A model generated the notes under the pieces. It worked only from the letters and a program-made list of their open reading frames with translations, had not been told where the DNA came from and did not search any database. Position numbers and translations under genes: made by a program. From positions 7,105 through 71,104 of the forward strand of contig JBMTCP010000008.1 of the NCBI GenBank assembly GCA_049431025.1: DNA of 64,000 nucleotides. Direction: 5' to 3'. This document shows positions 437 to 24,698 of this stretch, piece by piece (within the stretch, counting starts at the first letter, position 1; each line of letters opens with the position of its first letter). This stretch comes from Bacteroidia bacterium. GTDB taxonomy: Bacteria; Bacteroidota; Bacteroidia; UBA7662.

Positions 437-469
437 AGCCCGGCCCAGCCCCTTTAATCCTATCCTTCG

Positions 470-868
470 ATGCGATCCAGGGGAAAATCTTTGGTTTATT
501 ACATGATGCCATCGGCCTTTTGGTCGGTCGTGATGGCGGTCTTAATGTTCATTCCTGGTTCCGGGTATCCTTCCTTGTCCTTTTCGGGAACTGATCTCCT
601 GGTTCATGTTTTTTTGTTTGCTATTTGGGCCTTTTTGACCGCTCAGGGCCTGTACAAACAAGCCCACTGGCCTGCACTTCGCTTTTACCGTGGCTTTGCG
701 GTCGTTTTACTGGGGGTGCTTTGGGGGGTGGTTTTGGAATTGGTTCAGGGATTGTTGCTTTGGGAGCGTAGCGCTGGATTGGACGATTACCTCGCCGATA
801 TCGTGGGGATTTTTGGAGGTCTCTTTATTTTTGAGCGCTTGGTCAAGGTTAGCCGGGGTCGTCGATAG
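470..868 (+). CDS. VanZ-like family membrane protein
   Basis: 132 aa with four predicted hydrophobic helices and a VanZ-like LELVQ/DDYLADIVG core. Confidence 0.6.
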   Translation: MRSRGKSLVYYMMPSAFWSVVMAVLMFIPGSGYPSLSFSGTDLLVHVFLFAIWAFLTAQGLYKQAHWPALRFYRGFAVVLLGVLWGVVLELVQGLLLWERSAGLDDYLADIVGIFGGLFIFERLVKVSRGRR

Positions 869-948
869 TTCTATTTCTCGGGGAGGACGCTGATTAATTA
901 TTACGCAAAACAAGTTTGTTCAAAATTTGCGTTCTTTGTGGAAAGCTT

Positions 949-1614
949 ATGGAACTCAAGAAAAACCCCAAGGCAGACCTTAACCTCCAAAGGACTCTGT
1001 TTTTTCAGATCGGGCTTTGTGTAGCCCTGGCCGGTACCCTGTATGCCTTCAATTGGCGTGATGATGATGGAGAAGCTGCCAGTCTTGGCACCCTTCAAAT
1101 GGAGGACCTTACCGAAATGGAAATTCCCCAAACGGAACAAAAGGTAACGCCTCCGCCGCCTCCACCGCCTCCAACCTTGGAAGTCGTCGCTGACGAGGAG
1201 GTCATTGAAGAGGACGAAGTCGCGTCCACCGAAGTAACCCAGGAAACCCGTATTGAGGTTCCTGTCGTCGAATTAGAGGAAGAGGTCGCGTCCGAGCCCG
1301 AAATTTTTACGGTGGTTGAAGAAATGCCTTCTTTTCCGGGTGGTGACCAAGAATTGCTCAAATTCATGGCCGAAAACACCAAATACCCACCTTTAGCCCG
1401 TGAAAATGGCCTCCAGGGTATTGTCGTGGTCACCTTTGTTGTGGACGAGCGCGGTCGAATTGACAAAGTTCAGGTGCTCCGTGGTATCGGTGGCGGTTGC
1501 GATGAAGAGGCTGTCCGCGTGGTCAAAGCCATGCCGCAGTGGAGAGCAGGTAAACAGCGTGGGATGCCGGTTAGGGTTCAATACAATTTGCCCTTCCGAT
1601 TTACCCTTCGCTAA
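949..1614 (+). CDS. energy transducer TonB (C-terminal TonB domain protein)
   Basis: N-terminal TM anchor, a PPPPPPPP proline-rich spacer and an acidic linker. The C-terminal TonB domain reads MPSFPGGDQELLKFMAENTKYPPLARENGLQGIVVVTFVVDERGRI...RFTL. An alternative in-frame start lies at 916. Confidence 0.8.
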   Translation: MELKKNPKADLNLQRTLFFQIGLCVALAGTLYAFNWRDDDGEAASLGTLQMEDLTEMEIPQTEQKVTPPPPPPPPTLEVVADEEVIEEDEVASTEVTQETRIEVPVVELEEEVASEPEIFTVVEEMPSFPGGDQELLKFMAENTKYPPLARENGLQGIVVVTFVVDERGRIDKVQVLRGIGGGCDEEAVRVVKAMPQWRAGKQRGMPVRVQYNLPFRFTLR

Positions 1615-1630
1615 CGAAGGGCGCTTTTTG
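1604..1630. terminator. rho-independent-type hairpin (CCCTTCG-CTAA-CGAAGGG) followed by CGCTTTTTG, between convergent tonB-like and sodA genes
   Basis: Perfect 7-bp stem, 4-nt loop and T-run read directly from the sequence. The tonB stop codon lies in the loop. Confidence 0.5.
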
Positions 1631-1685
1631 ATCAACGACAAAGGGCGGTTCGCATCCTGGTCAGCGGGCTCCTCGAGAGCCGCTA

Positions 1686-2438
1686 TTAGCGGCTCGCTTG
1701 GGCAAAGCGGGATGAGACCTCATCCCAGTTCAAAACATTCCAAAAAGCATTCACGTAATCCGCTCTGCGGTTTTGGAATTTCAAGTAATAGGAATGTTCC
1801 CAAACATCCAAACCCAACAGGGGAAAGCCCCCACATCCGTTTTGTTTTTCGGTATCCATGAGCGGATTGTCCTGGTTGGCGGTTGAGCACAAATGCAGCG
1901 CTCCGTCCTTGTAACACAGCCAGGCCCAACCGCTTCCAAACCTGGCCATTGCGGCCTTGGAAAATTGCTCTTTCAGGGCCTCCACGGTTCCAAAGCTTTT
2001 TTGGATTGCGGCCATAAGGGGCTCGGATGGACTTGTACCTGCTTGGGGGGTAAGGATTTTCCAAAACAGCGAATGGTTGTAATGACCGCCTCCGTTATTG
2101 CGTACGGCCACGGGTAGGGACGAAATCATCCCCATCAATTCCTCCAACGAACGATCCGCGTGGGGCGTTCCGGTCAATGCAGCATTGAGGTTGTTGACAT
2201 AAGCTGCATGGTGTTTGGAATGATGAATTTCCATAGTCATGGCATCAAAATGGGGCTCCAAAGCATTGTAGGCGTAGGGTAGGGCGGGGAGTTCGAAAGA
2301 CATGGTAGTGTTAAAGTTTGATGGTGAAGTTGGATTTGTAGCGGCATCTTGGGCCTTCAAAAGCCCACCAAAGCGTGGAAAGACGAGGAGGCCCGTGAGC
2401 CCCATCAAAGTCTTTTGTATCCAATCGCGGCGGTTCAT
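1686..2438 (-). CDS. sodA: superoxide dismutase, Mn-type, with twin-arginine (Tat) signal peptide
   Basis: Fe/Mn SOD signatures ([14 protein letters not shown]). The Mn-type discriminators [11 protein letters not shown] and NQDNP are present. The N-terminus [19 protein letters not shown] resembles a Tat signal. Confidence 0.85.
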
Positions 2439-2471
2439 TATTAAGGTCCAGGTTCAATCGGTTTTTGTAAT

Positions 2472-2507
2472 ATCAAGTGAGCTCTGTCAAAATTAAACGC
2501 ACTTGAT
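2472..2507. promoter_or_regulatory. perfect 8-bp inverted repeat ATCAAGTG-N20-CACTTGAT (with nested ACGCA-N5-TGCGT) in the divergent sodA/metal-transporter intergenic region; candidate operator
   Basis: Read directly from the sequence. Its position between divergently transcribed metal-related genes suggests a metalloregulator site. Confidence 0.3.
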
Positions 2508-2643
2508 GCGTACAAAGTTCATTCGGCGATTAGATTTGGATAAACCATTGAGACGCCGACTTGCGTTAAATTCTATTGAAAGTAGGGTTGGGTGAGGGGT
2601 TGTTTTTTTAGACACAACTAAATTACCTTTGGGTCTTGATGTT

Positions 2644-4500
2644 ATGATGTTGGTGTCCCCTTGTTTAAGGTTTCGGCTTCGCTGGGTTGGGTTCCTGGGT
2701 TGGGGGCTTTTACTCCTGACGGAGCTCCACAGCGCGGTAGCCGCCGAAATCAGCCAAGGAAGCAAAGTCGTCCAAGGGAATCCGCCACGGGTCGTTGCAA
2801 CCACCGGGTTTTTGGCGGATATCGCGTCACAAATAGCGGGTCCTTCGGCCCTTGTGGTTTCCTTGCTTCCGCAGGGTTCCGATCCTCACCGTTACGATGC
2901 CGTTCCTAACGACACCAAAAGGCTTGCCGAAGCCGATTTGATTATCCAAAACGGTCTCAACCTGGAAGGCTGGCTGGACAAACTCATTGCCCAGGCCGCA
3001 AGCAAGGCTCAAAAAGTGACTGCGAGCGATGGAATCGCTGCCCTCAGCGACCCCCAGCACCCCGGCTCCTACGATCCGCACGCGTGGATGGATCCCGTGC
3101 TGGGGCGGGTTTATGCCCGCAATATTTACCGCGCCCTCTTGGCCCTTTGTCCCAATGATTCAATAAACCTAACCCGTCGTTGGTCAGATTATGATCAGCG
3201 CTTGGTGGCTCTGCACGAGGAATGCGATGCCTTGCTCCGTACGGTTCCCGATAAGTTCCGGGTCTTGGCCACGAACCATGACGCATTTCGGTATTTTGCA
3301 GCAAGGTATCGTTTTCGGGTGGTTTCTTTGTTGGGTACAAGTACGGATGCCGATGTACGAACCTCCGATGTTTTGCACATGAAACAAGTGGTTCTTCAAA
3401 ACGATTTACCCTGTGTTTTTGTGGAGGCCAATCTGAATCCCAAAATGTTACAACAAATTGCACAGGATGCGGGTTGTCGTTTGGGGCCCGCACTGTATGC
3501 GGACAGCATGGGTCCTCCAGGCAGTGGGGCGGATTCCTATACCGGTATGTTGTCCAGCAATGCGAGGGTTTTGGCATCCTCGCTGGGAGGCAAAGGGACC
3601 CCAAACAGGACCTCGGACCATTCGGCGCCGGTTTCGGTGTTTTGGGTTTTGAGCTTAATGCTCCCTGCAGGGGCTTTTTTGGCCTGGTCTTTGCGGCCAT
3701 CGCGCTCTGCTAACGCGATTTCCACCGGCCCTAACGAAGACAAACCGGGTCCGCGATTACGGGTTCAGGATCTTAGCGTAACCTACGATCGTAAGTCGGT
3801 CCTGAATGCTTTTTCGGCGGAATTCCATGAGGGATTGTGTTACGGTATATTAGGGCCGAACGGAGCCGGAAAGTCCACGTTATTCAAGGCGATTCTGGGA
3901 TTGAACGAGCCGGACCACGGTAACATTGAATACCGGCAAGAGCCGGTAAGGGTTTCCCCAAGGCGCATCGCTTATGTTCCCCAAAAAGGTATGGTGGACT
4001 GGGACTTTCCGGCCACCGTCCAAGACATCGTTCAAATGGGACGATTGCCGTGGCGGGGGGCCGGGCGACCCCTGGGTCGCGCGGACCTGCGGTCCGTCCA
4101 GGAAGCCCTGGAAGCCCTGGAGTTGGTGGACCTGCGCCACCGTCCCCTCAACCAACTTTCCGGGGGGCAGCAACAAAGGGTCTTCCTGGCCCGGGCCCTC
4201 GCCCAAGAAGCCGAAACCCTCTTGTTGGATGAGCCCTTCGTGGGGGTGGATGCCGCCACCGAGGCCAAAATTGTGGAAATACTCCATCGGTTTACCCGGG
4301 AACAAGGGGGCTTGGTGCTCATGATCCACCACGACCTTCAAAGGGCCAACACCTATTTTGATGAGGTCCTATTGATAAACCAACGCCTCATTGCCCAAGG
4401 CCCCCCGGAAGAGATTCTGGTCGAATCCAACCTGCTCAAGGCCTTTTCGGGGGTGGACCCCGGCTACGCAGACGCCGCCCAATACCGCAACAAACGCTGA
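2644..4500 (+). CDS. fused metal ABC transporter: periplasmic substrate-binding protein (TroA/ZnuA cluster A-I) - TM helix - ABC ATPase (ZnuC/MntB-like)
   Basis: Signal peptide MMLVSPCLRF...HSAVA. SBP motifs DPHRYDA, DPHAWMDP, NHDAFRYF. Hydrophobic segment VSVFWVLSLMLPAGAFLAWSL at about 3630-3695. The NBD carries Walker A GPNGAGKST, signature LSGGQQQRV and Walker B LLLDEP. There is no in-frame stop between the domains. The ORF track starts at TTG 2629; the first ATG is at 2644. Confidence 0.75.
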   Translation: MMLVSPCLRFRLRWVGFLGWGLLLLTELHSAVAAEISQGSKVVQGNPPRVVATTGFLADIASQIAGPSALVVSLLPQGSDPHRYDAVPNDTKRLAEADLIIQNGLNLEGWLDKLIAQAASKAQKVTASDGIAALSDPQHPGSYDPHAWMDPVLGRVYARNIYRALLALCPNDSINLTRRWSDYDQRLVALHEECDALLRTVPDKFRVLATNHDAFRYFAARYRFRVVSLLGTSTDADVRTSDVLHMKQVVLQNDLPCVFVEANLNPKMLQQIAQDAGCRLGPALYADSMGPPGSGADSYTGMLSSNARVLASSLGGKGTPNRTSDHSAPVSVFWVLSLMLPAGAFLAWSLRPSRSANAISTGPNEDKPGPRLRVQDLSVTYDRKSVLNAFSAEFHEGLCYGILGPNGAGKSTLFKAILGLNEPDHGNIEYRQEPVRVSPRRIAYVPQKGMVDWDFPATVQDIVQMGRLPWRGAGRPLGRADLRSVQEALEALELVDLRHRPLNQLSGGQQQRVFLARALAQEAETLLLDEPFVGVDAATEAKIVEILHRFTREQGGLVLMIHHDLQRANTYFDEVLLINQRLIAQGPPEEILVESNLLKAFSGVDPGYADAAQYRNKR

Positions 4501-4501
4501 A

Positions 4502-5851
4502 ATGGAAGCCCTGGAAACGACCTGGACCCTTTGGGACTACCTCCAACAGCCTTATTTTCAAAGGGCCCTTGGGGCAGCGATTATGGCCGGCACCGCCTGC
4601 GCCCTTTTGGGTTGTTTTATGGTGTTACGAAACATGGCCCTGATTGGCGATGCGCTTTCGCACGCCATACTGCCGGGGGTTGTGGTGGGTTTTATGATTG
4701 CAGGTCATAGTTTACTTGCCTTTTTTGTTGGTTCCGTTATGGCCGGTTTGTTCGCGGCAGTGCTGATTGCCTGGTTGCAAAACCGGGGTGGGGCTCGAAA
4801 CGACGCCGCTATCGGAATTGTTTTTTCGGCAATGTTCGCTTTGGGTGTTATCGGGATTTCTACACTTACCCGGCGTGAAGGGGTACACCTGGACATGAAA
4901 GATTTTTTGTTTGGTAATGTGTTAGGAATTGGTCAAGATGATTTGGTTTTGTCTGCCCTGGTTTTGGTTTTCGATGTCTTTTGTATTGGGGTGTTTTTGC
5001 CTTATTTCTTTGCCTCCGCATTTCAGGCCGATGTTGCCCAAACCATGGGAATCCCTACCCGTATTCTGCATTATTTCACCGTTTGGATGCTTAGCCTGAC
5101 GGTGGTGGCTTCCTTGCAATCGGTGGGCGTCATTTTGGTCGTATCCATGCTTATCGTACCTGCTTCCACGGCTTTGATCATGAGCCATAAACTACAAAAA
5201 GTCCTGCTTTGGGCTATGGGCTTAGGGGCCTTTAGTTCGGCCAGCGGGCTTATGGCCTCGGTCTATTGGGATACCGCGCCCGGTCCGGCGATCACCCTTA
5301 CCGCCACATTCCTGTACCTTATCGTTTTGGTGGGCCATCCCCAAAGAGGATTATGGCCCCAAAAGATGCGTAAAGCCCTTCGAATCTGGCAACATTGGGC
5401 CGAAGATTTTATCAAAGCCCTGCATCGTAACCCGGATTATAACAACAAACAAATCCAAGACGAATTGGGATGGAGCCCAAGAATCCTTTACCTCTCTCTG
5501 CTTTATTGCCGTAACAAAGGATGGATTCTTACCGATTCCAAGAACAAATCGCAATCGGCCCTCACCCCAACCGGGCTCCAGAAAGCCTTGAATATGGTTA
5601 GGGCCCACCGGCTCTGGGAAAGTTATTTGGCCCAAAAGCAAGGCTTTGAACCGCATCAATTGCATTGGTTGGCCGAGAAGGATGAACACGTGCTACCCCA
5701 AGAGTTTTTGGATCAAATCGACCAACGCCTGGGATTCCCCGATTTGGATCCCCACGGCTCACCCATACCACGAAACGAAGCCCATCCAAGCCCAAAGCCA
5801 CCATCAGCTCCAACGGGCTTCGACCCATCAGCCGCTCGTAAAGGCCTCTAA
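4502..5851 (+). CDS. fused ABC-3 family metal permease (ZnuB/MntC/TroC-like) - DtxR/MntR-family metalloregulator (HTH plus metal-binding dimerisation domain)
   Basis: The N-terminal roughly 280 aa is a multi-TM permease (LGCFMVLRNMALIGDALSHAILPGVV). The C-terminal roughly 170 aa has a winged helix (NKQIQDELGWSPRILYLSLLYCRNKGWIL...LTPTG) and a DtxR-like VRAHRLWESYL...EKDEHVLPQEFLDQIDQRLGFPDLDPHGSPIP. The ATG at 4502 follows the upstream stop directly. Confidence 0.75.
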   Translation: MEALETTWTLWDYLQQPYFQRALGAAIMAGTACALLGCFMVLRNMALIGDALSHAILPGVVVGFMIAGHSLLAFFVGSVMAGLFAAVLIAWLQNRGGARNDAAIGIVFSAMFALGVIGISTLTRREGVHLDMKDFLFGNVLGIGQDDLVLSALVLVFDVFCIGVFLPYFFASAFQADVAQTMGIPTRILHYFTVWMLSLTVVASLQSVGVILVVSMLIVPASTALIMSHKLQKVLLWAMGLGAFSSASGLMASVYWDTAPGPAITLTATFLYLIVLVGHPQRGLWPQKMRKALRIWQHWAEDFIKALHRNPDYNNKQIQDELGWSPRILYLSLLYCRNKGWILTDSKNKSQSALTPTGLQKALNMVRAHRLWESYLAQKQGFEPHQLHWLAEKDEHVLPQEFLDQIDQRLGFPDLDPHGSPIPRNEAHPSPKPPSAPTGFDPSAARKGL

Positions 5852-9493: not shown

Positions 9494-11392
9494 TCAGCCT
9501 TTTTTATTCAAATAAACCATTAAAACACTCATATCGGCCGGATTAATACCGCTTATCCGATAGGCCTGACCCAGATTGACAGGGGCCGCCTTTTGTAATT
9601 TTTCTACCGCCTCCGATGAAAGCCCTTTCACTTCGTGATAGGGGAAATCGGGACGCATACGAATTTGTTCTAAATCATCCATACTCCGTGCCCACGCCTC
9701 TTCTCTGGCAAGATAAGATGCGTATTTTACCTGAATTTCAACGCTTTGCAAATTTTGTTCTTCAAATTCTTCCAAAAAAGAATTCAGCTCCGGGTCGGCA
9801 TCACGCAGCGAGGCGATACCTATACCTGGCCGTAACAATAATTGATCCAAGCGTGTTTTTTGACGAATTGCGGCCTCCCCCTTCGAAACAAAATGATCGT
9901 TAAATAGTTCATTATTAATTGAATACGAATGTATTCTTTTTTCGATTGCAGAAATTTGTTCTTGTCTTTTTTCAAAATCTCTAAACACCGACTCCGGCAA
10001 AAGTCCGGCGCGATAACCCAATTCACTTAGACGCAGGTCGGCGTTGTCTTGTCGTAACATAATACGATACTCGGCCCTCGACGTGAACATTCGATAGGGT
10101 TCCTCGGTGCCTTTGTTCACCAAGTCATCAATCAACACCCCGATATAAGCCTCGGATCGACTCAAAACCAAAGGCTCCAAGCCCCGCAAAGATCGGTGGG
10201 CATTTATGCCCGCCATAAGCCCTTGACCAGCCGCTTCCTCGTAACCCGTGGTCCCGTTGAGTTGACCTGCCAAATACAAACCCTGCAAAGCCTTGGATTC
10301 CAATGATAAATGCAATTGTGTGGGGAAAAAATAATCGTATTCAATCGCGTAACCGGGGCGGAAAATTCTCGCCTTTTCAAAGCCTTTGACCTGCCGAAGG
10401 GCCTTGGTTTGTACTTCTTCGGGCAATGAAGTCGAAAATCCGTTGACATAAACCTCGACTGTGTCCCAACCCTCCGGCTCAATAAACAACTGATGCCGGT
10501 CTCTTTCGGCAAATCGATTGATTTTGTCTTCGATGCTTGGGCAATAACGAGGCCCAATGCCCTGAATTCGCCCGGTAAACATGGGTGATTGTTCAAATCC
10601 TTCCTGCAGAATTTCGTGAACGCGGGTATCGGTATAGGTAATCCAACAGCTTTTTTGGTGTTCCAGGGCCTTGCTTTCCTTGCGGTACGAAAACTTGCCC
10701 GGCCTATCGTCACCTTTTTGCTCTTCCATCAAGTCGTAATTCAACGTCCTCCCATCTACTCTTGGGGGGGTCCCGGTTTTCATGCGTCCACCTTCCAGGC
10801 CCTCGGCCTTGAGCTGCTCTGTAATCCCGTACGATGCCGACTCACCCGCCCTTCCGCCGCCCAATTGTTTCTCGCCCACATGAATTAAACCATTCAAAAA
10901 GGTGCCTGTGGTCAAAACAACACGGGGTGCCCGGATTACCTGGCCCAAGCCCGTAATCACCCCTTGGACTTTACCTTGTTTCAACAACAACTGCTTTACG
11001 GAATCCTGTCGAAAGCTTAGGTTGGGGATTTGTTCCAAGCGGTATCGCCAATTGGCCGCAAACATAAAACGGTCGTTTTGGGTCCTCGGGCTCCACATAG
11101 CAGGTCCCTTGGAGCGATTAAGCATCCGAAACTGCAAAGCCGAATAATCCGAAACCAAGGCCGATAATCCCCCCAAAGCATCGATTTCACGAACAATTTG
11201 TCCTTTGGCCACACCACCCATAGCGGGATTGCAAGACATCTGTGCAATCGTTTGCATGTTCATGGTCACCAAAAGCGTTGACGAGCCCATATTGGCCGCT
11301 GCGGCAGCGGCTTCACAGCCGGCATGACCGGCACCAACAACGATGATATCAAAATCCCAATGTTCCACGTAGAACGCCTTTTGGCGCTGCAA
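9494..11392 (-). CDS. mnmG: tRNA uridine 5-carboxymethylaminomethyl modification enzyme MnmG (GidA)
   Basis: FAD-binding DIIVVGAGHAGCEAA, 632 aa, full-length GidA-like sequence. Confidence 0.92.
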   Translation of the reverse strand: MQRQKAFYVEHWDFDIIVVGAGHAGCEAAAAAANMGSSTLLVTMNMQTIAQMSCNPAMGGVAKGQIVREIDALGGLSALVSDYSALQFRMLNRSKGPAMWSPRTQNDRFMFAANWRYRLEQIPNLSFRQDSVKQLLLKQGKVQGVITGLGQVIRAPRVVLTTGTFLNGLIHVGEKQLGGGRAGESASYGITEQLKAEGLEGGRMKTGTPPRVDGRTLNYDLMEEQKGDDRPGKFSYRKESKALEHQKSCWITYTDTRVHEILQEGFEQSPMFTGRIQGIGPRYCPSIEDKINRFAERDRHQLFIEPEGWDTVEVYVNGFSTSLPEEVQTKALRQVKGFEKARIFRPGYAIEYDYFFPTQLHLSLESKALQGLYLAGQLNGTTGYEEAAGQGLMAGINAHRSLRGLEPLVLSRSEAYIGVLIDDLVNKGTEEPYRMFTSRAEYRIMLRQDNADLRLSELGYRAGLLPESVFRDFEKRQEQISAIEKRIHSYSINNELFNDHFVSKGEAAIRQKTRLDQLLLRPGIGIASLRDADPELNSFLEEFEEQNLQSVEIQVKYASYLAREEAWARSMDDLEQIRMRPDFPYHEVKGLSSEAVEKLQKAAPVNLGQAYRISGINPADMSVLMVYLNKKG

Positions 11393-11460
11393 AAATAGAC
11401 TTTTCCTTGCCGCTCTTATCCTTTTGGGGATAGATGAGTTCCTTGTTCCACGTGGAACAA

Positions 11461-11895
11461 TCAGGCTTTTATTCTGGACCTTATGGCCAAAGCCTCCTCC
11501 TCGTGTCTCCGCATAGTCCTTTTGTCCAGATCGGTTTGGTCGTCGTATCCCAACAAATGCAAAAGGCCGTGAACCAAAACACGGTGCATCTCGTCTTCAA
11601 ACGACGCGCCCCAAACCTTGGCCTGCTCCCGAATCATGCTTGGACTGATACAGCATTCACCGTGAATGATGCCGTCCTTGGGATTCTCGCTGTAATCAAA
11701 AGTCAAAATATCGGTGTCGCCCTCGTGATTCAAAAACTCCTGGTTCAAGTTCTCCATCCAGGCCGATGAACCAAAAGCATAGGAAAGGTGTTCAATTCTT
11801 GCCTCGTGCTGGGCAGCCACCTCCACCAACCAAGATCGCAGCCAGCGTCGCTTTGGGGGCAAAGGCATGCCATCAGCCGAAACAAAAGTGATCAT
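11461..11895 (-). CDS. ybeY: rRNA maturation endoribonuclease YbeY
   Basis: HGLLHLLGYDDQTD zinc-binding motif; 144 aa. Confidence 0.88.
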   Translation of the reverse strand: MITFVSADGMPLPPKRRWLRSWLVEVAAQHEARIEHLSYAFGSSAWMENLNQEFLNHEGDTDILTFDYSENPKDGIIHGECCISPSMIREQAKVWGASFEDEMHRVLVHGLLHLLGYDDQTDLDKRTMRRHEEEALAIRSRIKA

Positions 11896-14800
11896 CGGGA
11901 GGGTGGCGATTGGCGTAGTTTGCTTTGATACCTCAAATTGCGTTCGCGGTAATAAGCATTTAAATCAGGAGCGGCGGGCTTGTAAGCGCCCTGTTTATTG
12001 ATGTTAAGTCGCTGAATGGGGTCCAAGGACGACCCGGTTCTGTCCTGGTTTTGTTGTTTGGCGCTTTCGGAAGAACGACTTTGTTCCATTTCTCGCTCCT
12101 GTTCTGCCTTCTCAGCCTCCAACATTCGGCTCAAAATTTGTTGCTGCCTTTGCAGGCTTTCCATGCTAATCTTTTTGTTGACCAGCTCCTTTTCGGTTTG
12201 TTCCATTTGTTTGACGGCTTCCTCGATGGCTTGGCGGCCGGGCTGGTTCCCCCCTTCTTTGTTAAGCTCCTTGAGGATTTTTTCCATTTCGCGCCTTATG
12301 GCTTCTTGCTGGGCGACCATTTGCGCAAACTCTTTACCTCCTTCGCCCCTGGAAGGCTTGTTCCCGGCCTTGGATTCGCCCTGGCCTTGACCCTTGCTTT
12401 TGCCCTGCTGTTCCTGCATTTGATTGCTCAGTTTCTTTTGCATGCTGCGCAAGCGAGACATTCCGGAGCCCCCGGGTTTGGGTTTTTTGCATTGCTGATT
12501 CCCGGGCATTTGGCTGGCCTTCTGTTCGGTCGCTTGCTGCAACAATTCCGACAAAAGGTTGGCAAGGTTGTTGGCCGCCGTCATGGTGTATTGCTGGCGG
12601 CCTTTGGCCCCGTTGACATCCCTTTGGTTCATCCGCTCCAGGGTGGCCTTGTAGTGTTCTTCGAGTTCCTTGATTTCTTTTTGGACAGGGGCCTGTATTT
12701 GCCAGACGCGACGCGATAAAGCTTCCAGGCTGTCTTTCATGGGATCCAATTGCTCACGCAAACCAAATTGCTCACGAGATAATTGCACAAAAACCTGGGA
12801 ATAGTTGGTTTGGTCTTTGAGGCGGTCCATGATGGCCTCCTGATCAAAGGAAAACTTGAGAACACGACCCAAGAGACGGCGCATGGCCCGGAGATCTTCC
12901 TCCAGTTCTTCCATTTCCTGCTGAGCCAATTGCTTTTGCATTTGGTTACTCATTTGGCGCATTCCGGCTGCCGCTTTTTGCTGTTTTTGTGCGGATTTGC
13001 TTCGGTTTTGTTGGTTTTTGGCTTGATTTTCGGCCTCTTCCTGATCCTTGGTCACTTCTTCGCCTTGGTCTTCCAGACCATCCAGGTCTTTGGGGCGCTC
13101 AAGCTCTTGGTTCTTTTCCTTGGTTTTCTCCCAGTCCTTGAGAAGGTCTTTGGTTTCTTGACGCAACTTTTCTTGTTCTTCGGCTACTTTATTCAGGTCC
13201 TGTTCGGGGTTTTTGGTTTTCTGCGCCAAATCTTCTTGCTGCCGGGCCAGTTCCTCCAATTTCTTCATGGCTTTTTCTATACGATCCTCAACCTCTAACT
13301 CCTTGAAGAACTGCAACATACGGTCCAATTCTTTGCTAACTCTGCTCTGGTCTTTCTCGAGTTTTTCGAGTTGTTTCTGGATTTCGGGTTTGGCCGCTTC
13401 GTCTCGTAACATTTTTTCTATGCTACGCAGCATTTCCTTCATTTCTTCGTTGAGTAATCTCTCCGCCATTTCTTTGATTTTCTCCTGTTTTTCAAGGATT
13501 TGAACGGGGGTTTCAGCGGATGATTTTTGTTGTTGTAACTCTAGTTTTTTTTGAATTTCTTCGACCTCTTCGATGGCCTGACGTTGTTCGTTCCTTAATT
13601 TTTCCAGGTCTTTGCGGTCTTCAAAGCCCCACTCCTTTTGCTGTTTAAGACGATCAGATAATTTACGGGTCTGCTGTTGAGCCTCTTGCATGTCCTTGTC
13701 TGCTTTTTGAAAACCCGTAGACGTTTCACGCGATAAGGCTTCAAGGGCCTGGGCTTTTTCACGCTCAGAGGATAAGCGCCATTCAAACAGGGCGGAGCGA
13801 CTTCGTTTATAGCCAGCCGGCTGATCGTTATCCTCCACTTCCAATCCGTACCGAAGGCCGTCCCCGGGGTTTAAACCCATTTTGAGGGGGTCAACAACTT
13901 CCTCAAAACGCCTTTCGGCAATCCCCCCCTCCCAAGCAAAGGGCAAAAATTGCTCTTTGGAATCAAAGTCCTTTTGACCAGCGCGCTTGATCCAATAAAC
14001 CCAATGCAAACTTCGGAGGCCGTAATCATCCCATGCCCTACCCGAGACCAAAGGGGGCTCCAGAGGATCCGCAGACTCCTTAACCTCAACCTCAAGACCC
14101 GGAGGCATGTCTTCAACCAAATCAACACCAAAAGCCAACGTATCCGCTTCTTGGCCCTGGTTGCTGTACAAAAGCAGTTTGTACGCGCTGCTAAGGGCTG
14201 GAATCCAACGCAGCGAATAGCGCTGCCCCGTTGAAGCATCGTTTTCGCGTACTCCAAAACGAGGAGCGGTCGCTTCCGGGGTCAAGAGGCCCAAGCCGTT
14301 GCTGTGCTTGCTATCCACAACAAAACGCAAAGACGTACCCCTTGGAACCTGAACATCTCCGCTATTCAATAGACGTTCAGCCGCTTTACCGGTATGAGGA
14401 GGGTATTCTATCCACAAAGCCAATTGCAACAGCGTGGGTTTATGAAAAACCGTCAATTGTTCTTCGGACGAAGAAAACCCGGAAGCGCTAAACCAAAACG
14501 ATCCGGAACGCCGAACATTGGGAACTTTAAAAGCAAAACGACCCGGAGAAATTCGGCGCATTTTGTAGGCCTGCTGGCCCCAATGAACCAATGCTTCCTG
14601 AGGAATTTCTCTTCCGGAAATTTCAAGCTGAACATCCCATTCTGAACCCGCCTCAACGCGCAATGGCGTTTGATCCCAATCAAACTCAAAGGGGGCGGGA
14701 AGCGTGTAACCTACATTGTAACGAAGTATTCGACCGGTTCCAACCGACATCACATCAGGAACCCAAAACCACAAAAACAACCATAAAGCCGCTAAAGGAA

Positions 14801-15278
14801 CCACAACCCAGGCATAGGGTTTCAATTTGGACCAAGGAACAATCGCCGAAAAAGCCAAGGACCTTACCCATCCATGCCGCTGCTCCAAACTGGCCTCTAT
14901 CAAATCGCGGGAAACCCCCTGATCCGCTTCGGTCTGTAAATCCACCATATTCAAAAGCTTGTCTTGAATTTGAGGATAATAAACCCCGATTCGTAGAGCC
15001 GCTTCGCGACGAGACATGCGCGGCAAACGGCCCTTCCACCGTAACCAAGGTAGAAGAACCCCAAAAGCCAAGACCAACAAATTCACCAATACATACCCCA
15101 ACAACAACCACAAGCGCAAGGCGCTACCCATCCAGGTATAAAAAGCACCGGCAGCCAAGAGCATCCACGGCAAAACCAAAACAGCAACCCAAACCAAAAA
15201 CCCCCGCACCATACGCCAACCGTAGTAGTGCCGAATGGTAGCATCCAGCCGTTGGTTGATGTCATTCAAAGCCTTCAT
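11892..15278 (-). CDS. large membrane-anchored protein with extended K/E/Q-rich coiled coil (possibly DUF4175-like), function unknown
   Basis: 1128 aa. N-terminal TM helices, a roughly 450-aa non-repetitive region, then about 500 aa of a charged heptad-like segment (EEVEEIQKKLELQQQK...), and a basic Gly/Lys-rich C-terminus. Stop and start codons overlap those of xth and ybeY by 4 bp. Confidence 0.5.
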   Translation of the reverse strand: MKALNDINQRLDATIRHYYGWRMVRGFLVWVAVLVLPWMLLAAGAFYTWMGSALRLWLLLGYVLVNLLVLAFGVLLPWLRWKGRLPRMSRREAALRIGVYYPQIQDKLLNMVDLQTEADQGVSRDLIEASLEQRHGWVRSLAFSAIVPWSKLKPYAWVVVPLAALWLFLWFWVPDVMSVGTGRILRYNVGYTLPAPFEFDWDQTPLRVEAGSEWDVQLEISGREIPQEALVHWGQQAYKMRRISPGRFAFKVPNVRRSGSFWFSASGFSSSEEQLTVFHKPTLLQLALWIEYPPHTGKAAERLLNSGDVQVPRGTSLRFVVDSKHSNGLGLLTPEATAPRFGVRENDASTGQRYSLRWIPALSSAYKLLLYSNQGQEADTLAFGVDLVEDMPPGLEVEVKESADPLEPPLVSGRAWDDYGLRSLHWVYWIKRAGQKDFDSKEQFLPFAWEGGIAERRFEEVVDPLKMGLNPGDGLRYGLEVEDNDQPAGYKRSRSALFEWRLSSEREKAQALEALSRETSTGFQKADKDMQEAQQQTRKLSDRLKQQKEWGFEDRKDLEKLRNEQRQAIEEVEEIQKKLELQQQKSSAETPVQILEKQEKIKEMAERLLNEEMKEMLRSIEKMLRDEAAKPEIQKQLEKLEKDQSRVSKELDRMLQFFKELEVEDRIEKAMKKLEELARQQEDLAQKTKNPEQDLNKVAEEQEKLRQETKDLLKDWEKTKEKNQELERPKDLDGLEDQGEEVTKDQEEAENQAKNQQNRSKSAQKQQKAAAGMRQMSNQMQKQLAQQEMEELEEDLRAMRRLLGRVLKFSFDQEAIMDRLKDQTNYSQVFVQLSREQFGLREQLDPMKDSLEALSRRVWQIQAPVQKEIKELEEHYKATLERMNQRDVNGAKGRQQYTMTAANNLANLLSELLQQATEQKASQMPGNQQCKKPKPGGSGMSRLRSMQKKLSNQMQEQQGKSKGQGQGESKAGNKPSRGEGGKEFAQMVAQQEAIRREMEKILKELNKEGGNQPGRQAIEEAVKQMEQTEKELVNKKISMESLQRQQQILSRMLEAEKAEQEREMEQSRSSESAKQQNQDRTGSSLDPIQRLNINKQGAYKPAAPDLNAYYRERNLRYQSKLRQSPPSR

Positions 15279-18005: not shown

Positions 18006-19202
18006 TCAAAAACCTAAATATTGACGCAAATTACCCAAACCTAATTCCATTTTTTCTTTGCTTTTGGCAAAACATAAGCGCATTAACAAAGGTCCTTCCT
18101 GGGACGTGTTCTCCATAAACGGAGAAAAAGGAATCATAGCACATCCTGCTTTCAAAGCCCATTCCTCAGCCAATACCAAATCCGATGGAGAATTAGATAG
18201 AAACGAAAAGTCAAGCCATTGAAAATAAGTTCCTTGAACAGGAACAGCCTTGATCGGAGTGGATTTCAATAACGAAAACAAAAAATCACGTTGATCCAAA
18301 TAAAAGGAGGCAATTTCCTTGCGAACCGAATCGTGTTGTAAAAAAATCTCAAAGCTGCGTTGCATTAATGAATTGACACAAAAAACATTGTATTCGTGGT
18401 GTTGACGCAATCGTAACATCCAAGCCTCAGAACCCGCAGCATAACCCAATTTCCAACCGGTACAATGGTACGTCTTCCCAAAAGAATGCACAACCATGAT
18501 CCGATTTTGGTTGTTTTTTAACGTAAGAAGACTTTTGAAGGGGGATTCAAAAACCAAATAAGCATAAACCTCATCACCCAACACAAACAAACCTTGGTGC
18601 TCCTCCAAAATAGACTCTACCGCTTTGAAATCTTCCTCAGACCAACAATAACCGCTGGGATTATGGGGGTTATTAATTAACCACAATTTGGTTTTGTGAC
18701 TAATAGCATCGCGAATTCTATTCCAATCCAATGAAAACCCGTATTCTGGATTAAAATCCATAGCAACCCGAACCGGAACGGCACCAACCGAACGAACAAC
18801 CGGTGCATACGAATCATAAGCGGGATCCAAAATCAAAACCTCATCTCCAGGCGCTAGAACCGAAACGATGGCATCATGCAAAGCCTGTGTAGCCCCAGCA
18901 GTAACCGTTATTTGAGTATTTTGGTCAAGAAAAACACCAAAGTCTTCCTGCCAAATTCGTGCAATTTGCTGACGCAATCCCAGCAAACCAAACGACGGAA
19001 CATACTGGTAGTAATTTTCTTGCAAAGCTTCCTGAACCGCAGCCAAAAGCAAAGCGGGGGGTTGATGATCCGGGAAGCCTTGTCCCAAATTGACCGCTCC
19101 CGATTGAGCGGCCCAAGCGTTAACGCGGGTAAAAATACTGGTTTGCTGATCCATCATGCCGACGCCAAAAATACGGGGAGCCAGGATGAAGGATTTGAAC
19201 AA
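18006..19202 (-). CDS. PLP-dependent aminotransferase class I (methionine/glutamine aminotransferase, YbdL-like)
   Basis: VNLGQGFPD N-terminal motif, PLP-lysine context SFGKTY, 398 aa. Confidence 0.75.
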   Translation of the reverse strand: MFKSFILAPRIFGVGMMDQQTSIFTRVNAWAAQSGAVNLGQGFPDHQPPALLLAAVQEALQENYYQYVPSFGLLGLRQQIARIWQEDFGVFLDQNTQITVTAGATQALHDAIVSVLAPGDEVLILDPAYDSYAPVVRSVGAVPVRVAMDFNPEYGFSLDWNRIRDAISHKTKLWLINNPHNPSGYCWSEEDFKAVESILEEHQGLFVLGDEVYAYLVFESPFKSLLTLKNNQNRIMVVHSFGKTYHCTGWKLGYAAGSEAWMLRLRQHHEYNVFCVNSLMQRSFEIFLQHDSVRKEIASFYLDQRDFLFSLLKSTPIKAVPVQGTYFQWLDFSFLSNSPSDLVLAEEWALKAGCAMIPFSPFMENTSQEGPLLMRLCFAKSKEKMELGLGNLRQYLGF

Positions 19203-19244
19203 ACCAAAGAACTATAAAAAGGTATTTTTTTTGTTTTTATACTT

Positions 19245-19475
19245 TAGGGCTGTGGAAAAGTGGATAATCACTTATTCCTCCATTATACACGGGTTTATCC
19301 ACTCAAAAAAAGATAAAAACTACCTTAAAAACCATAGAAAAGCATAATTACATTCCACTTGTGAATAAGTGTATAGATAACAGGACAAAAGTTATCCTTA
19401 TCCACATGGAATAACCCCGTACCCGATGGTGGACAAAAAGAAGGCTCCTTTTATTATACACTTTTTATCCACGCC
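19245..19475. promoter_or_regulatory. cluster of DnaA-box-like 9-mers in an AT-rich intergenic region (candidate oriC or DnaA-regulated promoter)
   Basis: TTATCCACA perfect at 19398-19406. TTATTCACA (reverse) at 19360-19368. TTATCCACT at 19295-19303 and (reverse) 19259-19267. TTTTCCACA (reverse) at 19251-19259. TTATCCACG at 19465-19473. An A/T-rich stretch lies at 19305-19350. Confidence 0.45.
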
Positions 19476-20043
19476 AAAATGGGTGATTTGCACAGGTTTT
19501 CCATAGAATATCCGGAACCAAATACCGTACAGAAAGCCCTTGAGCAAGGCGACGACGAATCAGCGTTGAAGAAATTTCGATTTTGGGAGCTTCAACCAAA
19601 CGGTGAGGAACCGGGTTTTCGGGTAATTGACCATCGAAATGCCGCGGATAAACCCACAAAGGCCAGGAATTCAGAATCAACTCGTAATTTTTCCAACGGG
19701 TAAACTGAATTAACTGATCCTCACCCAGTAACAAAACAAAAGAACGATCGGGATAAAGATTCCCTAGGTGTTCAAGGGTTCTGTGGGTATAGGAAGGAAG
19801 GGGAAAGTCTTTTTCGACTGTACAAAGCTTTAATCGAGGATTATCCTGAATACAGGTTTCAATCCAGCTGGCTCTGGTTTCAAAGTCAAGCATATGATCA
19901 CCGCTTTTGAGGGGATTTTGCGGTGAAAGAACCAACCAAACTTCCTCCATTTCCGATAAGGAAGCAAAGTATTCAGCAAGGATGAGGTGGCCCTGATGAA
20001 TGGGATTGAACGAACCAAAAAACAAACCCGTAAGCTTAGTCAT
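19465..20043 (-). CDS. nadD: nicotinate-nucleotide adenylyltransferase
   Basis: GLFFGSFNPIHQGHL (HxGH nucleotidyltransferase motif); 192 aa. Confidence 0.88.
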   Translation of the reverse strand: MTKLTGLFFGSFNPIHQGHLILAEYFASLSEMEEVWLVLSPQNPLKSGDHMLDFETRASWIETCIQDNPRLKLCTVEKDFPLPSYTHRTLEHLGNLYPDRSFVLLLGEDQLIQFTRWKNYELILNSWPLWVYPRHFDGQLPENPVPHRLVEAPKIEISSTLIRRRLAQGLSVRYLVPDILWKTCANHPFWRG

Positions 20044-20629: not shown

Positions 20630-21577
20630 TTACAATAAATTGGCAGCCTGTTCCTTTATTTTTTCTAACCACTCTTTGGCCATGACAACCCGGTGCTGAA
20701 TTTCAAAATCAGACGCCTTGGAGCCGATGGTATTCACTTCTCTTCCAATTTCCTGGGCAACAAAACCAAGTTTACGCCCTTGTTCGCTCTCGTTTTCCAA
20801 GACGCTTTGCGCTAATTCAAGATGAGCACCCAAACGCACCAATTCTTCCGAAATATCCTTTTTTTCCAGATAAAATAGGATTTCCTGTTCCAAGCGAAGG
20901 GGATCTGGGGACCATCCGGGGGGTACGTTGGCGGGGTTTTTCCATTCGTCCAGAAATTCGTTGATTTTTTGACGGACGCTTATGCTTTTTTTGGAGTCGT
21001 TCTCGGAAATAAACGTGAGTAGTTTACGGATTTCGTTAAGGTAATCCTGGATAACCAGGGCTATGCTGCGGCCTTCGTTCTGACGAAATTCCTGGCAGGA
21101 ACGAATGGCCGAATTCAACGCCGTTCGGTACGTCGCCAACGCATCAAGGTCCAAGGCCAAGGGGCTTGCGGATTCCGCTTGGGGAGAAGAATCCTTGAAA
21201 AGCAAAGGATGTTTGGCGGCCAATTCTAACCAAGCTGTTGATTCCTCCGGCGAAGGTTTCATTGTTGGGTTTTTGGAGACCAACCAGCTTTGCCAGGCCC
21301 CCCAAACCTCATCCAAAATGTCGGCGCGAAGGGAGCGCGACGAACCTATTCCCTTGGTGGCGGAATCTTCCTGGTAAATTTGTAGGGTGATTTTGCCGCG
21401 AATAAATTCCTTTTGAAGGGTTTTGAGGGTTTCTGCTTCGAAGGCGGACCAGGACTCACCCCATCGGCATTGAATATCCAGGCCTTTACTGTTCAATGTT
21501 TTGATTTCTATTCGGTAGGATTGGTCGCCAAGCATCAAGGTGGCCTGACCAAAACCCGTCATGGAGGTGGTTTTCAT
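20630..21577 (-). CDS. yicC: YicC/YloC family stress-induced protein
   Basis: N-terminal MTGFG(QA) and a conserved C-terminal YicC domain (EIGREVNTIGSKA); 315 aa. Confidence 0.8.
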   Translation of the reverse strand: MKTTSMTGFGQATLMLGDQSYRIEIKTLNSKGLDIQCRWGESWSAFEAETLKTLQKEFIRGKITLQIYQEDSATKGIGSSRSLRADILDEVWGAWQSWLVSKNPTMKPSPEESTAWLELAAKHPLLFKDSSPQAESASPLALDLDALATYRTALNSAIRSCQEFRQNEGRSIALVIQDYLNEIRKLLTFISENDSKKSISVRQKINEFLDEWKNPANVPPGWSPDPLRLEQEILFYLEKKDISEELVRLGAHLELAQSVLENESEQGRKLGFVAQEIGREVNTIGSKASDFEIQHRVVMAKEWLEKIKEQAANLL

Positions 21578-22083
21578 AAAGGCTCAAAATAGATACGAAC
21601 CTGCGCAAAAACATCGTCGGAAGGATAGCCTTTGCCGATAAGGTAACGGGATAATTTGGCGCAAAGTTTTTGGCGCTGGCGATAATCGATAGCCGGTTCG
21701 TTCGCGGTAAGCAAGGCCCATTTGGCCTGGGCCAGGGCCGGTAACGCCGTTCGGTTGGGATCCAATTCCAAGCACCAGGAACGGGCCTCTTCCAAATAAT
21801 CCTTTAATCCCCACAACATCAAACCATGACGAATTTTATTCCATCCCCATCGGGCTCGACCGCAGCGATCGCGGCAATAAATTTCAACAAAGCGTCGGTT
21901 GTCCACAAAGCGCTCCCGCACAAGCCGTTCCAATATTTCATTTTGTTGTTCGGCGGCGAGATTAGTGCGGTTCAGCTTTTGTTGAATATGCCAAACACAG
22001 CACTCTTTTCGGGAACAAAGCGCCATGAGCCGCTGTAGAACGCGCTGTGGGTCGTCAGGGGTGTCTTTTTTCAAAATCAACAC
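21574..22083 (-). CDS. recX: recombination regulator RecX
   Basis: Three-helix repeat pattern (RVLQRLMALCSRKECCVWHIQQKL..., ILERLVRERFVDNRRFVEIY...). A GTG start at 22083 gives about 169 aa and avoids overlap with murF. The longer ORF to 22395 would overlap murF by 270 nt. Confidence 0.65.
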   Translation of the reverse strand: MLILKKDTPDDPQRVLQRLMALCSRKECCVWHIQQKLNRTNLAAEQQNEILERLVRERFVDNRRFVEIYCRDRCGRARWGWNKIRHGLMLWGLKDYLEEARSWCLELDPNRTALPALAQAKWALLTANEPAIDYRQRQKLCAKLSRYLIGKGYPSDDVFAQVRIYFEPL

Positions 22084-22124
22084 GAAGCAATCGCTTTCAA
22101 ATTTCGGTATTTTTACCCATTCCC

Positions 22125-24698
22125 ATGAATCCCGAACCCAAACTTTCTTGGAATTTGCAAGGCATCGCCCAAGCGGTTCAGGGTTCGGTTTGGGTGCGTC
22201 AGGGTTCATCGGCGACACAAAGTGTAAGCGAATGGGTTTACGATACACGCCGGTGTACACACCCTGAACGGGGTCTTTTTTTGGCTTTGTCCGGCACAAA
22301 TTCCGGGCGGGATGGTCATCACTTTTTGGATGAGGCGTACCGTTTGGGCATAAGGAATTTTTTGGTAAAGGAAGGCCACGTTGACTCGTGGCCACCCGAG
22401 GATTTGACGGTTTCTGTACTGGCGGTACCGGACCCCCTCAAGGCCTTGCAAGAACTTGCGGCCATCCACCGGCATCGCTGGGGTGGTGACGTATGGGCTA
22501 TTACGGGCTCCAACGGCAAAACCCAGGTCAAAGAATGGATGGCAGAAATGCTCCAGGGCCAAACCCGCTTTTGCAAGACCCCGGGTAGTTTTAATTCCCA
22601 GTTGGGCTTGCCTTTATCGGTTTTGGGCGCCACCCGGGATTGCCGTTTAGGGGTTTTTGAAGCGGGAATTTCCCAAGAGGGTGAAATGAAAGCCCTTGCC
22701 CGGATCCTTAGGCCTCAGGGAGGCCTTCTGACGCATTTTGGTGAAGCACACCAGGAAGGGTTTTTGAGCACAGCTCATAAATTGAAGGAAAAACTAAGTC
22801 TTTTTGAGGGCTGTACCTGGGTTGTTGCCAGGGCCGACTTGGAGGAAGAACACCAAAAAGTTTGGCGAGACCTGGTCTTGCGTAACCCACAAACCGGGTT
22901 TCATTGGTGGATCCCGGAAGCTGCCTCTGAAAGGTTGGCTTCGTGGTTTGAAGAATTGGTGAAGGAAGGGGCAAGCAGGAAGCAGTTGCACAGCTGGAAA
23001 CTACTCGCCCAACCCGATCAAGCGAAAAACCCGAATAGACATGAATTGTGTTGCGAAGGCAAAACACCGGTGGTTTTTGATGTTCCGCGTTCCGGGGAAG
23101 CTGTTTTGGAAAACATGGTTGGTACAGTCTTGACCCTTATGGTTGGGGGTTATTGGTCCAACGAATGGGCTCCCCGATGCGCCGAGCTGAGAACGCTGTC
23201 CATGCGCATGGAAATCAAGGAGATACCGGGTTCTTGTCGTTTGTTGAACGACAGTTACAGCCTGGATTTGGATTCCTTTCAATGGGCTTTGCGGGAATGG
23301 GCATTGCAGGTTGGAGATTCAGAAGGTATTGTGGTATTGTCCGAGCCCGATACCCGAGAACAAACGCCGTTGGAGCCTTTTTTGCAAACCCTGCAACGGT
23401 ATCCGTGGAAACGTCTTTATTTGGTAGGACCGCGCTGGAAGGAACAGGCTTGGACGCCCCAGTCGAATCAAATCGTGGATTTTTTTGAGGACACCAATCA
23501 ATTGTTACAACAATGGCCATTAGGCCAAAGCGCCCATGCCTGCATTTTGCTGAAAGGCGCCAGAAAGTTTGGCTTTGAACGGATTGAGCAAAAGCTTTTG
23601 GTTCAGGGCCATCAGACTGTTTTGGAAATTGACTTGGAAGCGGTACGGCACAATTTCGGGATTTTTCGCTCCTTGGTCTCGCCGGGGGTTCGCATGATGG
23701 TTATGGTCAAAGCGGGTGCCTACGGGAGCGGGAGCGTTGAAATTGCTCGAGCCCTACAAGAGGCGGGGGTTGATTATTTGGCCGTGGCCAGTGCAGGCGA
23801 AGGTATAGAGTTAAGGCGCGGAGGCGTTCATTCCCCGGTATTGGTCATGAACTGTGGTCCAACGTCAACCGATACGGTTTTGCAATACGGACTGGAACCG
23901 GATTTGTACGCTCTGGACGAAATACGCCGTTGGACCAAGGCCCTAAGAGAGCCCGCTTTTTTTCATTTGCCCCTGGATACGGGCATGCGCAGGCTGGGCT
24001 TGGGTATGGAAGACCGCGAAGAAGCCTTGAACTTATTGTCCCAATCGGCCCAAAACATCAGAATACGCAGCATTTATACGCATCTCACCTCCTCTGAGGA
24101 GCCTGCTCAGGATAGTTTTAGTGCCGGTCAATGGCAGAGCCTTCAGGATTTTGTTGGTGCATTTGAAAAGCGTATGGGCTATAGGCCCTTGGTGCACGCG
24201 CTGAATACCGCAGGGATTGTTCGTTTTCCGGATTACCAAGCGGATATGGTCCGTTTGGGCTTGGGTTTATATGGTCTGGATTCCACGAACATGCTTCAGG
24301 AAAGACTGAAGCCACTAGCAAAATTCAAAACTATTTTGGTTCAGACCCATCAACTAAAACGCGGTCAAACCCTGGGCTATGGTAATCAGGGCGTAATGAA
24401 TCAAGACGGGGTTGTAGGGGTATTGCCCGTGGGGTATGCTGACGGCTTGACAAGAACCCTGGGCATGGGAAAGGCGTCCTTCCTGATTAACGGATCTTGG
24501 GCCCCTACCATTGGGAGGATTAGCATGGATTTCTGTTTGATTGATTTAACGGATATTCCGGCTCATGTTGGCGACGAGGTCGTTTTGTGGAGCAATACGC
24601 GTGATGTGAGAGCCTGGGCAGAAGCCAGCGGCACCATACCCTATGAAATTTTGACCGGCTTATCTCCAAGGGTGCAGCGGGTGTACATTCGGGGTTAA
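22125..24698 (+). CDS. murF: bifunctional UDP-N-acetylmuramoyl-tripeptide--D-alanyl-D-alanine ligase (MurF) / alanine racemase (Alr)
   Basis: N-terminal Mur ligase domain with ATP motif AITGSNGKTQVKEW. The C-terminal roughly 370 aa is an alanine racemase (PLP-Lys in VMVMVKAGAYGSG). Confidence 0.85.
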   Translation: MNPEPKLSWNLQGIAQAVQGSVWVRQGSSATQSVSEWVYDTRRCTHPERGLFLALSGTNSGRDGHHFLDEAYRLGIRNFLVKEGHVDSWPPEDLTVSVLAVPDPLKALQELAAIHRHRWGGDVWAITGSNGKTQVKEWMAEMLQGQTRFCKTPGSFNSQLGLPLSVLGATRDCRLGVFEAGISQEGEMKALARILRPQGGLLTHFGEAHQEGFLSTAHKLKEKLSLFEGCTWVVARADLEEEHQKVWRDLVLRNPQTGFHWWIPEAASERLASWFEELVKEGASRKQLHSWKLLAQPDQAKNPNRHELCCEGKTPVVFDVPRSGEAVLENMVGTVLTLMVGGYWSNEWAPRCAELRTLSMRMEIKEIPGSCRLLNDSYSLDLDSFQWALREWALQVGDSEGIVVLSEPDTREQTPLEPFLQTLQRYPWKRLYLVGPRWKEQAWTPQSNQIVDFFEDTNQLLQQWPLGQSAHACILLKGARKFGFERIEQKLLVQGHQTVLEIDLEAVRHNFGIFRSLVSPGVRMMVMVKAGAYGSGSVEIARALQEAGVDYLAVASAGEGIELRRGGVHSPVLVMNCGPTSTDTVLQYGLEPDLYALDEIRRWTKALREPAFFHLPLDTGMRRLGLGMEDREEALNLLSQSAQNIRIRSIYTHLTSSEEPAQDSFSAGQWQSLQDFVGAFEKRMGYRPLVHALNTAGIVRFPDYQADMVRLGLGLYGLDSTNMLQERLKPLAKFKTILVQTHQLKRGQTLGYGNQGVMNQDGVVGVLPVGYADGLTRTLGMGKASFLINGSWAPTIGRISMDFCLIDLTDIPAHVGDEVVLWSNTRDVRAWAEASGTIPYEILTGLSPRVQRVYIRG

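Follow-up and report, generated by a model that had tools for sequence, protein, structure and literature searches.

A candidate chromosomal replication origin, unlinked to dnaA, in the nadD-aminotransferase gap of an uncultured Bacteroidota bacterium

In an uncultured Bacteroidota bacterium, the gap that separates nadD from a methionine-type aminotransferase gene contains a dense cluster of DnaA boxes, which is probably the chromosomal origin of replication (oriC) of this organism and is not linked to dnaA. This reading is based on conserved, clade-specific boxes, a tandem box pair and GCCC spacer of the type found in the basal unwinding system (BUS), which belongs to origins like that of Bacillus subtilis and was reportedly described by Richardson in 2016, an unstable AT-rich tract, a local switch in GC skew, diverging genes and the nearby mnmG gene. 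The DNA analyzed was a stretch of 64,000 nucleotides, referred to here as the window. An initial annotation of this stretch had left a choice between a replication origin and a DnaA-titrating or DnaA-regulated site. The syntenic conservation of the cluster, the rarity of such box density elsewhere and a local skew switch of origin sign at 18.75-19.75 kb favored the origin.

The window is chromosomal DNA and its proteins match those of uncultured Bacteroidota. The cluster fills the gap between two minus-strand genes, from the start of the aminotransferase gene (18006 to about 19157) to the stop codon of nadD (19465-20043). The aminotransferase start was taken from a 383-amino-acid gene call in a contig of the same species (L002). 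Leftward of the gap, all on the minus strand, are genes for a CN-hydrolase, a small ORF, a cyclophilin-type prolyl isomerase gene, xth and a gene for a 1128-amino-acid DUF4175 protein. These are followed on the same strand by a gap at 11393-11891, where ybeY is located in the relatives, mnmG/gidA (9494-11392, 8 kb from the cluster), a methyltransferase gene, a gene for a Big_5 protein and rlmN. Rightward of the gap, four more minus-strand genes follow (nadD, gmk, yicC and one resembling recX), and from about 22.1 kb the genes are mostly on the plus strand (murF-alr, feoAB, rimP-nusA-infB, aspS, guaB, pheS and others). The strand pattern described in the initial annotation was thus confirmed, with every gene from 5848 to about 22,100-22,400 on the minus strand (the start of recX is ambiguous). 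Over most of the region from 5.8 to 64 kb, the genes are co-oriented with forks diverging from the cluster. Left of 5.8 kb, the ABC transporter genes, tonB, gcvH, sprA and ruvA are head-on to a fork coming from the candidate origin. A tblastn search with E. coli DnaA detected no dnaA in the window, in agreement with the annotation, or in the syntenic loci; its sole match was in an unrelated Sphingobacteriales genome (L046). Rfam and tRNA scans of the window returned no matches, and the gap thus gives no sign of a structured RNA.

Six matches to TTATCCACA with at most one mismatch, out of 28 across the 64-kb window, are located at 19251-19473. All six had been listed in the initial annotation and were found at the same coordinates and on the same strands. 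Five additional boxes with two mismatches lie inside the same 223 bp. The features of the non-coding region that carries this cluster, an arrangement expected of an oriC, include the following:

19158..19464, no strand: candidate oriC as a whole, from the nadD stop to the aminotransferase start codon, defined by ORFs and family matches and, for the start at about 19157, by the L002 gene call
19251..19259, minus strand: DnaA box TTTTCCACA, one mismatch, second of the tandem pair and nearest to the AT-rich tract
19259..19267, minus strand: DnaA box TTATCCACT, one mismatch, first of the head-to-tail pair (17 bp in total), conserved in the window's clade
19283-91, plus strand: weak box TTATACACG, in the orientation opposite to the tandem pair
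19295-303, plus strand: DnaA box TTATCCACT, in the orientation opposite to the tandem pair
19360..19368, minus strand: DnaA box TTATTCACA, conserved in the closest strains only
19398..19406, plus strand: perfect DnaA box TTATCCACA, also perfect in relatives with 77-86% identical NadD
19428..19436, minus strand: weak box TTGTCCACC, two mismatches, kept in L006, L090 and L091
19454-62, plus strand: weak box TTATACACT, two mismatches
19465-73, plus strand: DnaA box TTATCCACG, at most one mismatch, overlapping the nadD stop codon

Shuffling the 318-bp intergenic region with preservation of dinucleotides (n = 5000) produced a mean of 0.11 boxes and a maximum of 3, versus the 6 observed, and shuffles of the whole window had a mean of 11.4 matches to TTATCCACA with at most one mismatch versus 28. 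The initial annotation had held that a similar density in other AT-rich regions would speak against an origin. Each of the eleven next most AT-rich 318-bp segments of the window contained 0-1 boxes, so that AT-richness does not account for the density. Outside the window, a single locus among 150 from more distant Bacteroidota (2.09 Mb; among the matches listed) had at least four boxes in 318 bp. This single case, L047, was one of 78 distant genome loci (1.34 Mb; among the matches listed), and none of the 72 distant metagenome loci had even three boxes in 318 bp (0.75 Mb). L047 belongs to a Saprospiraceae MAG and has eight boxes, five of them perfect, within about 340 bp (19316-19654), 9 kb downstream of its nadD. 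This cluster is probably the origin of that genome, in a different gene context.

Relatives were collected through exact-protein look-ups of NadD homologues, a genome scan with an NadD alignment and a metagenome scan. The loci from the genome scan were mostly distant, with 35-50% identical NadD, among the matches listed; the window's own genome and its near relatives came from the look-ups and the metagenome scan. The syntenic set consisted of about 12 non-redundant relatives plus duplicate and same-species contigs, with NadD 48-100% identical. Within the window's clade, NadD identity was 85-86% (L091, L103, L104), 77-79% (L090, L105-L107), 66% (L092, L108) or about 60% (L093, L094, L109, L110). 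In the sister clade, in which nadA is inserted, it was 52-57% (L087, L096, L097, L098), 50% (L008) or 48% (L007). The recovered relatives with NadD identities of at least 48% share the gene order yicC-gmk-nadD-[270-490 bp gap]-(nadA)-aminotransferase-...-ybeY-mnmG, and the gap of each synteny-keeping relative recovered contains two or more boxes with no more than one mismatch, and a larger number when boxes with two mismatches are counted. The box cluster is kept even where nadA replaces the aminotransferase gene as the downstream neighbor. An orthologous locus was also located on a 3.4-Mb contig (Ga0450665_004, JGI 3300042370), with nadD at 664,743-665,318, the gap at about 664,345-664,742 and 10 kb read on either side.

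In the alignments the boxes appear as conserved islands amid diverged sequence. The sequence TTTTGG[CT]GTGGATAA at the nadD stop is invariant in all seven aligned clade-A sequences, and a box overlaps the stop in six of eight additional close relatives, the other two having a box 4 bp past it. The last codons and stop of nadD (CGT GGA TAA) overlap the box at 19465-19473 and are invariant in the window's clade, and the same bases would thus be both coding sequence and a predicted protein-binding site. The block GTGGAWAA...GTGKATAA (19283-19303) is also conserved in the clade-A alignment. At the place of the box at 19360-19368 there is no box in L091, L090 or L092. Taken over NadD identities of 48-100%, the alignments point to clear purifying selection on the boxes and on the core junction.

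The best-conserved part of the region is this core junction, TTATCCAC-TTTTCCACA-GCCC-TAA (19267->19244, minus strand). Read along the nadD-coding strand, it is composed of a 9-mer box and an 8-mer box placed head to tail, the 4-bp GCCC and an A-rich tract. Two more features complete the list:

19247..19250, minus strand: GCCC spacer (GGGC on the plus strand) at the junction of the tandem boxes and the AT tract; GCCC, GCAC, GCTC or GCCT in relatives
19205..19246, no strand: AT-rich least stable duplex (83% A+T), T-rich on the plus strand, putative unwinding element

The TTTCCAC core of the box at 19251-19259 is invariant except in the two most distant relatives, which have TTTGCAC (L008) and TATCAAC (L007). 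Within 1.66 Mb of loci, the motif CAC[AG]GCCC[TC]AA was found only in these intergenic regions and in two apparent chance matches. The tract at 19205-19246 abuts the spacer on the side to which the tandem boxes point, and an A-rich tract is conserved at this position in all relatives. By predicted duplex stability, the least stable 30-mer of the intergenic region is 19212-19241, and the 42-mer 19205-19246 is within the least stable 0.011% of the window; an AT-rich element of this kind adjoining the boxes is another property of an oriC. The initial annotation had proposed as unwinding element an A/T-rich stretch flanked by boxes. Such a stretch exists (47 bp, 19304-19350, 79% A+T), but the least stable duplex lies to the left of the start of the region then annotated, and the likely unwinding element is the predicted one at 19205-19246 rather than 19304-19350.

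The position of the cluster, directly upstream of the aminotransferase start, raises the question of whether the boxes mainly regulate the aminotransferase or nadA operon and couple NAD or amino-acid metabolism to the cell cycle. The AT-rich tract must hold the aminotransferase promoter, and 19205-19246 probably overlaps the promoter region. A scan of 19000-19600 for sigma-70 promoters and terminators gave results at chance level with models that are not suited to Bacteroidota promoters. However, the core is kept while the downstream gene varies (aminotransferase or nadA), which argues against a gene-specific operator. Furthermore, the 6-11 boxes in these 220 bp, including one within the terminal coding sequence of nadD, go far beyond the DnaA-regulated promoters that we know of, all of which carry far fewer. 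A promoter function also leaves the skew switch described below unexplained, and it is very unlikely to be the main role of the boxes. Regulation is nonetheless compatible with a real origin as its secondary function, and it is possible that origin-bound DnaA acts secondarily on the adjacent promoter.

The core junction was compared with the published BUS rule, which asks for a box with at most two mismatches and a tandem box in the same orientation with at most four, a spacer within 16 bp of the first box and GC-rich, of about 4 bp, after the second (Pelliciari 2021, PMC8287927), and for a run of at least three consecutive 3'-NAN-5' triplets within 16 bp, the DnaA-trios, written (.A.){3,} (PMC8287927). 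The window has the two same-orientation tandem boxes, TTATCCACT and TTTTCCACA, with one mismatch each (9-mer plus 8-mer, 17 bp), the short GC-rich spacer GCCC (19247-19250), kept in the relatives, and the AT-rich tract on the side to which the boxes point. The GCCC is the same as the CGGG spacer, written 3'->5', of the Bacillus, Geobacter and Treponema entries (PMC8287927 Table S2). Examples, also 3'->5', are B. licheniformis, AATAGGTGT TTAGGTGT CGGG GATGAT..., and Treponema, ...AAAGGTGT CGGG GAT... (PMC8287927 Table S2). The first triplet of the window after a 3-bp spacer is likewise 3'-GAT-5', and it is the single canonical one. Unlike these entries, the window has no run of at least three 3'-NAN-5' trios, and the strand expected to be bound is T-rich. 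A search for (.A.){3,} on the 3'->5' strand found no such run in the window, and among the 8-9 relatives tested only L094 has one. In terms of sequence, the region can be described as a putative DnaA-dependent oriC with a BUS-like double-stranded part that falls outside the strict published BUS by its trios.

In the sister clade, a (YAA)5 tract directly follows the core TTTCCACRGCCC, for example AACAACAACAACAAA (L087 10920-10960; equivalents in L096, L097, L098 and L008), and all three substitutions among the five sequences are at the Y position. This is an element with a 3-nt period at the place where DnaA-trios are expected, but the strand that should carry them lacks their canonical central adenine and has 3'-T(G/A)T-5' repeats, which read as (YAA)5 along the strand of the boxes. 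In the window's own clade, a degenerate T-rich tract takes the place of (YAA)5. We tentatively suggest, as a possibility that we consider doubtful, that this lineage may use a variant unwinding module in which a T-rich strand with 3'-T(G/A)T-5' triplets replaces the canonical 3'-[G/A]AT-5' trios. If that were the case, the trio's "invariant" central adenine would have exceptions, and such origins would be missed or mis-parsed under the current BUS and Ori-Finder rules.

The arrangement also resembles that of E. coli oriC. There, a 5'-T-rich DUE precedes GCCC-TGTGGATAA-3', and in the window a 5'-T-rich tract precedes GGGC-TGTGGAAAAGTGGATAA-3', so that both share the polarity 5'-T-rich-GCCC/GGGC-TGTGGA(T/A)AA of R1 box and DUE (PMC8287927 Table S2). 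The T-rich strand carries TTGT and TTAT motifs, and both loci are unlinked to dnaA and near gidA/mnmG. In contrast to E. coli, no 13-mer repeats or GATC sites were seen by eye in the region, mnmG is 8 kb away rather than adjacent, and the flanking genes are nadD and the aminotransferase gene. Within the same phylum, the DoriC origin of Chitinophaga pinensis (ORI93020100) reads 3'-CAAAAGTGT ATAAGTGT CGG GATTATCATCAC-5' (PMC8287927 Table S2) and has the junction CACAGCCCTAA in common with the window, although its entry includes the trio run that the window lacks. Published origin predictions for Bacteroidota look heterogeneous. Also in this phylum, oriC-based plasmids replicate in Cytophaga hutchinsonii (PMC5288383).

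Sliding GC skew was negative between 5 and 19 kb, close to zero up to 22 kb and positive farther right. Because the gene strand switches at 22 kb, it entered the fit of gene-level skew as a covariate, and within the window the fit was best with a change-point at 19.0-19.5 kb for all sites and at 19-21 kb for third codon positions. The leftmost 5.8 kb of the window does not have negative skew. A 72-kb composite was built from the window and 8.3 kb leftward of it taken from a contig of the same species (L099, 98.9% identical over window positions 1-4704); this contig and that of a relative, L101, were found by a SodA search. Past the left end of the window, its plus strand continues with gcvH, a 7.4-kb sprA and ruvA, and in both genomes (L099 and L101) sprA and ruvA, read in the orientation of the window, have a skew of about -0.05 to -0.09 (about -0.25 at third positions). 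Over the 72 kb, the length-weighted mean skew left of the cluster was -0.041 for plus-strand genes and -0.114 for minus-strand genes; right of it, the values were +0.055 and +0.034, respectively. An explanation of the skew by coding strand alone was rejected, since minus-strand genes differ by about 0.15 between the two sides and sprA and ruvA, on the plus strand at the left, are negative. The change-point of the composite was at 18,750-19,750, and its fit was reached by 0 of 2000 gene-position permutations (7 of 2000 for third positions). On the plus strand, C prevails over G left of the switch and G over C right of it, the sign of an origin and not of a terminus.

The minimum of the cumulative skew is a plateau at 19-22 kb, flat from nadD to recX. 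The mismatch between the gene-strand boundary and the boxes, which the initial annotation had pointed out, is real and can be accounted for by four short head-on genes, nadD, gmk, yicC and recX, across which the cumulative skew is flat. A local cumulative minimum was present within about 3 kb of the gap in 10 of 10 relatives sequenced on both flanks, and in L007, with only 1.8 kb upstream of nadD, it was at the edge of the locus. A segment comprising sodA, tonB and a hypothetical gene (about 900-2440; 2267-4217 in L099 and 10001-11995 in L101) has a skew opposite to that of its neighbors. It was seen both in the species of the window and in a relative whose SodA is 72% identical, and it is a small anomaly within the left arm.

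The skew switch, examined over 72 kb, could also mark an old rearrangement boundary. The cluster might then be a former origin inactivated after a rearrangement, or boxes for another factor, with the skew step inherited from an old inversion boundary, and the sodA/tonB segment does show that local skew anomalies exist. This explanation is extremely improbable: the boxes and core junction appear to be under selection, third codon positions show the same step, and the gene order across the gap is the same in all relatives, which indicates that there was no recent breakpoint there. A recent inversion was rejected in particular, as even relatives whose NadD is 48% identical have that same order.

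Bacterial chromosomes also have DnaA-box clusters that are not origins, such as datA and DARS in E. coli and the DnaA-box clusters in B. subtilis. The cluster under study is like them in being intergenic, in having several DnaA boxes and in its distance from dnaA, and it might be a non-firing cluster that titrates or recycles DnaA, with the true oriC elsewhere, for example near dnaA. Neither dnaA nor dnaN was found within 72 kb, canonical DnaA-trios are absent, and clusters of similar size occur outside origins in model bacteria. However, a non-origin cluster is expected away from the replication start and without an unwinding element, and here a local skew switch of origin polarity and the least stable duplex coincide with the boxes. 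To our knowledge, neither a skew switch nor a box-directed unwinding element accompanies datA, DARS or the B. subtilis clusters, while the oriented tandem boxes, the GCCC and the candidate element in the window form an unwinding-type layout. A non-firing cluster of this kind is the main alternative to an origin, but it is unlikely. Many DoriC-predicted Bacteroidetes origins are at coordinates far from record position 1 (PMC8287927 Table S2); record start sites vary, and these coordinates give only a hint that dnaA-unlinked origins are common in the group.

If the cluster is an origin, we infer the following initiation pathway. DnaA would fill the five or six stronger boxes and the weaker ones across about 220 bp. 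The pair TTATCCAC-TTTTCCACA (19267->19251, minus strand), which faces the AT tract across GCCC, would, by analogy with the Bacillus BUS and E. coli R1, guide a DnaA oligomer to the T-rich strand at 19205-19246. Opening of the duplex at 19205-19246 would then permit loading of the helicase, and forks would leave in both directions.

The candidate provides a well-supported origin assignment, away from dnaA, for an uncultured and mostly freshwater Bacteroidota lineage, and it could be used for genome orientation, for replication-rate (peak-to-trough) estimates from metagenomes and in vector design. While it changes no general concept, the conserved junction of box pair and GCCC without canonical trios is a data point on the reach of the BUS model into Bacteroidota.

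Other observations concern the gene content of the window. The recX-like ORF (21574-22395 in its longest form) overlaps the murF-alr fusion gene (22047-24698) by about 350 bp; the recX calls in the relatives are much shorter (130-175 amino acids), and the long N-terminal extension is probably not real. The 1128-amino-acid protein with a weak DUF4175 match (11892-15278) is encoded beside xth and ybeY in all relatives, and its gene includes two matches to CTATCCACA that are 97 bp apart (14311 and 14408). At 2629-5851 there are two metal-uptake fusions, one of a ZnuA-like substrate-binding domain with an ABC ATPase and the other of an ABC-3 permease with a DtxR/MntR-type C-terminal domain, which are also single gene calls in L099 and L101. 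A urea-transporter (UT) domain and a Peptidase_M23 domain are both encoded by one ORF at 61351-63543.
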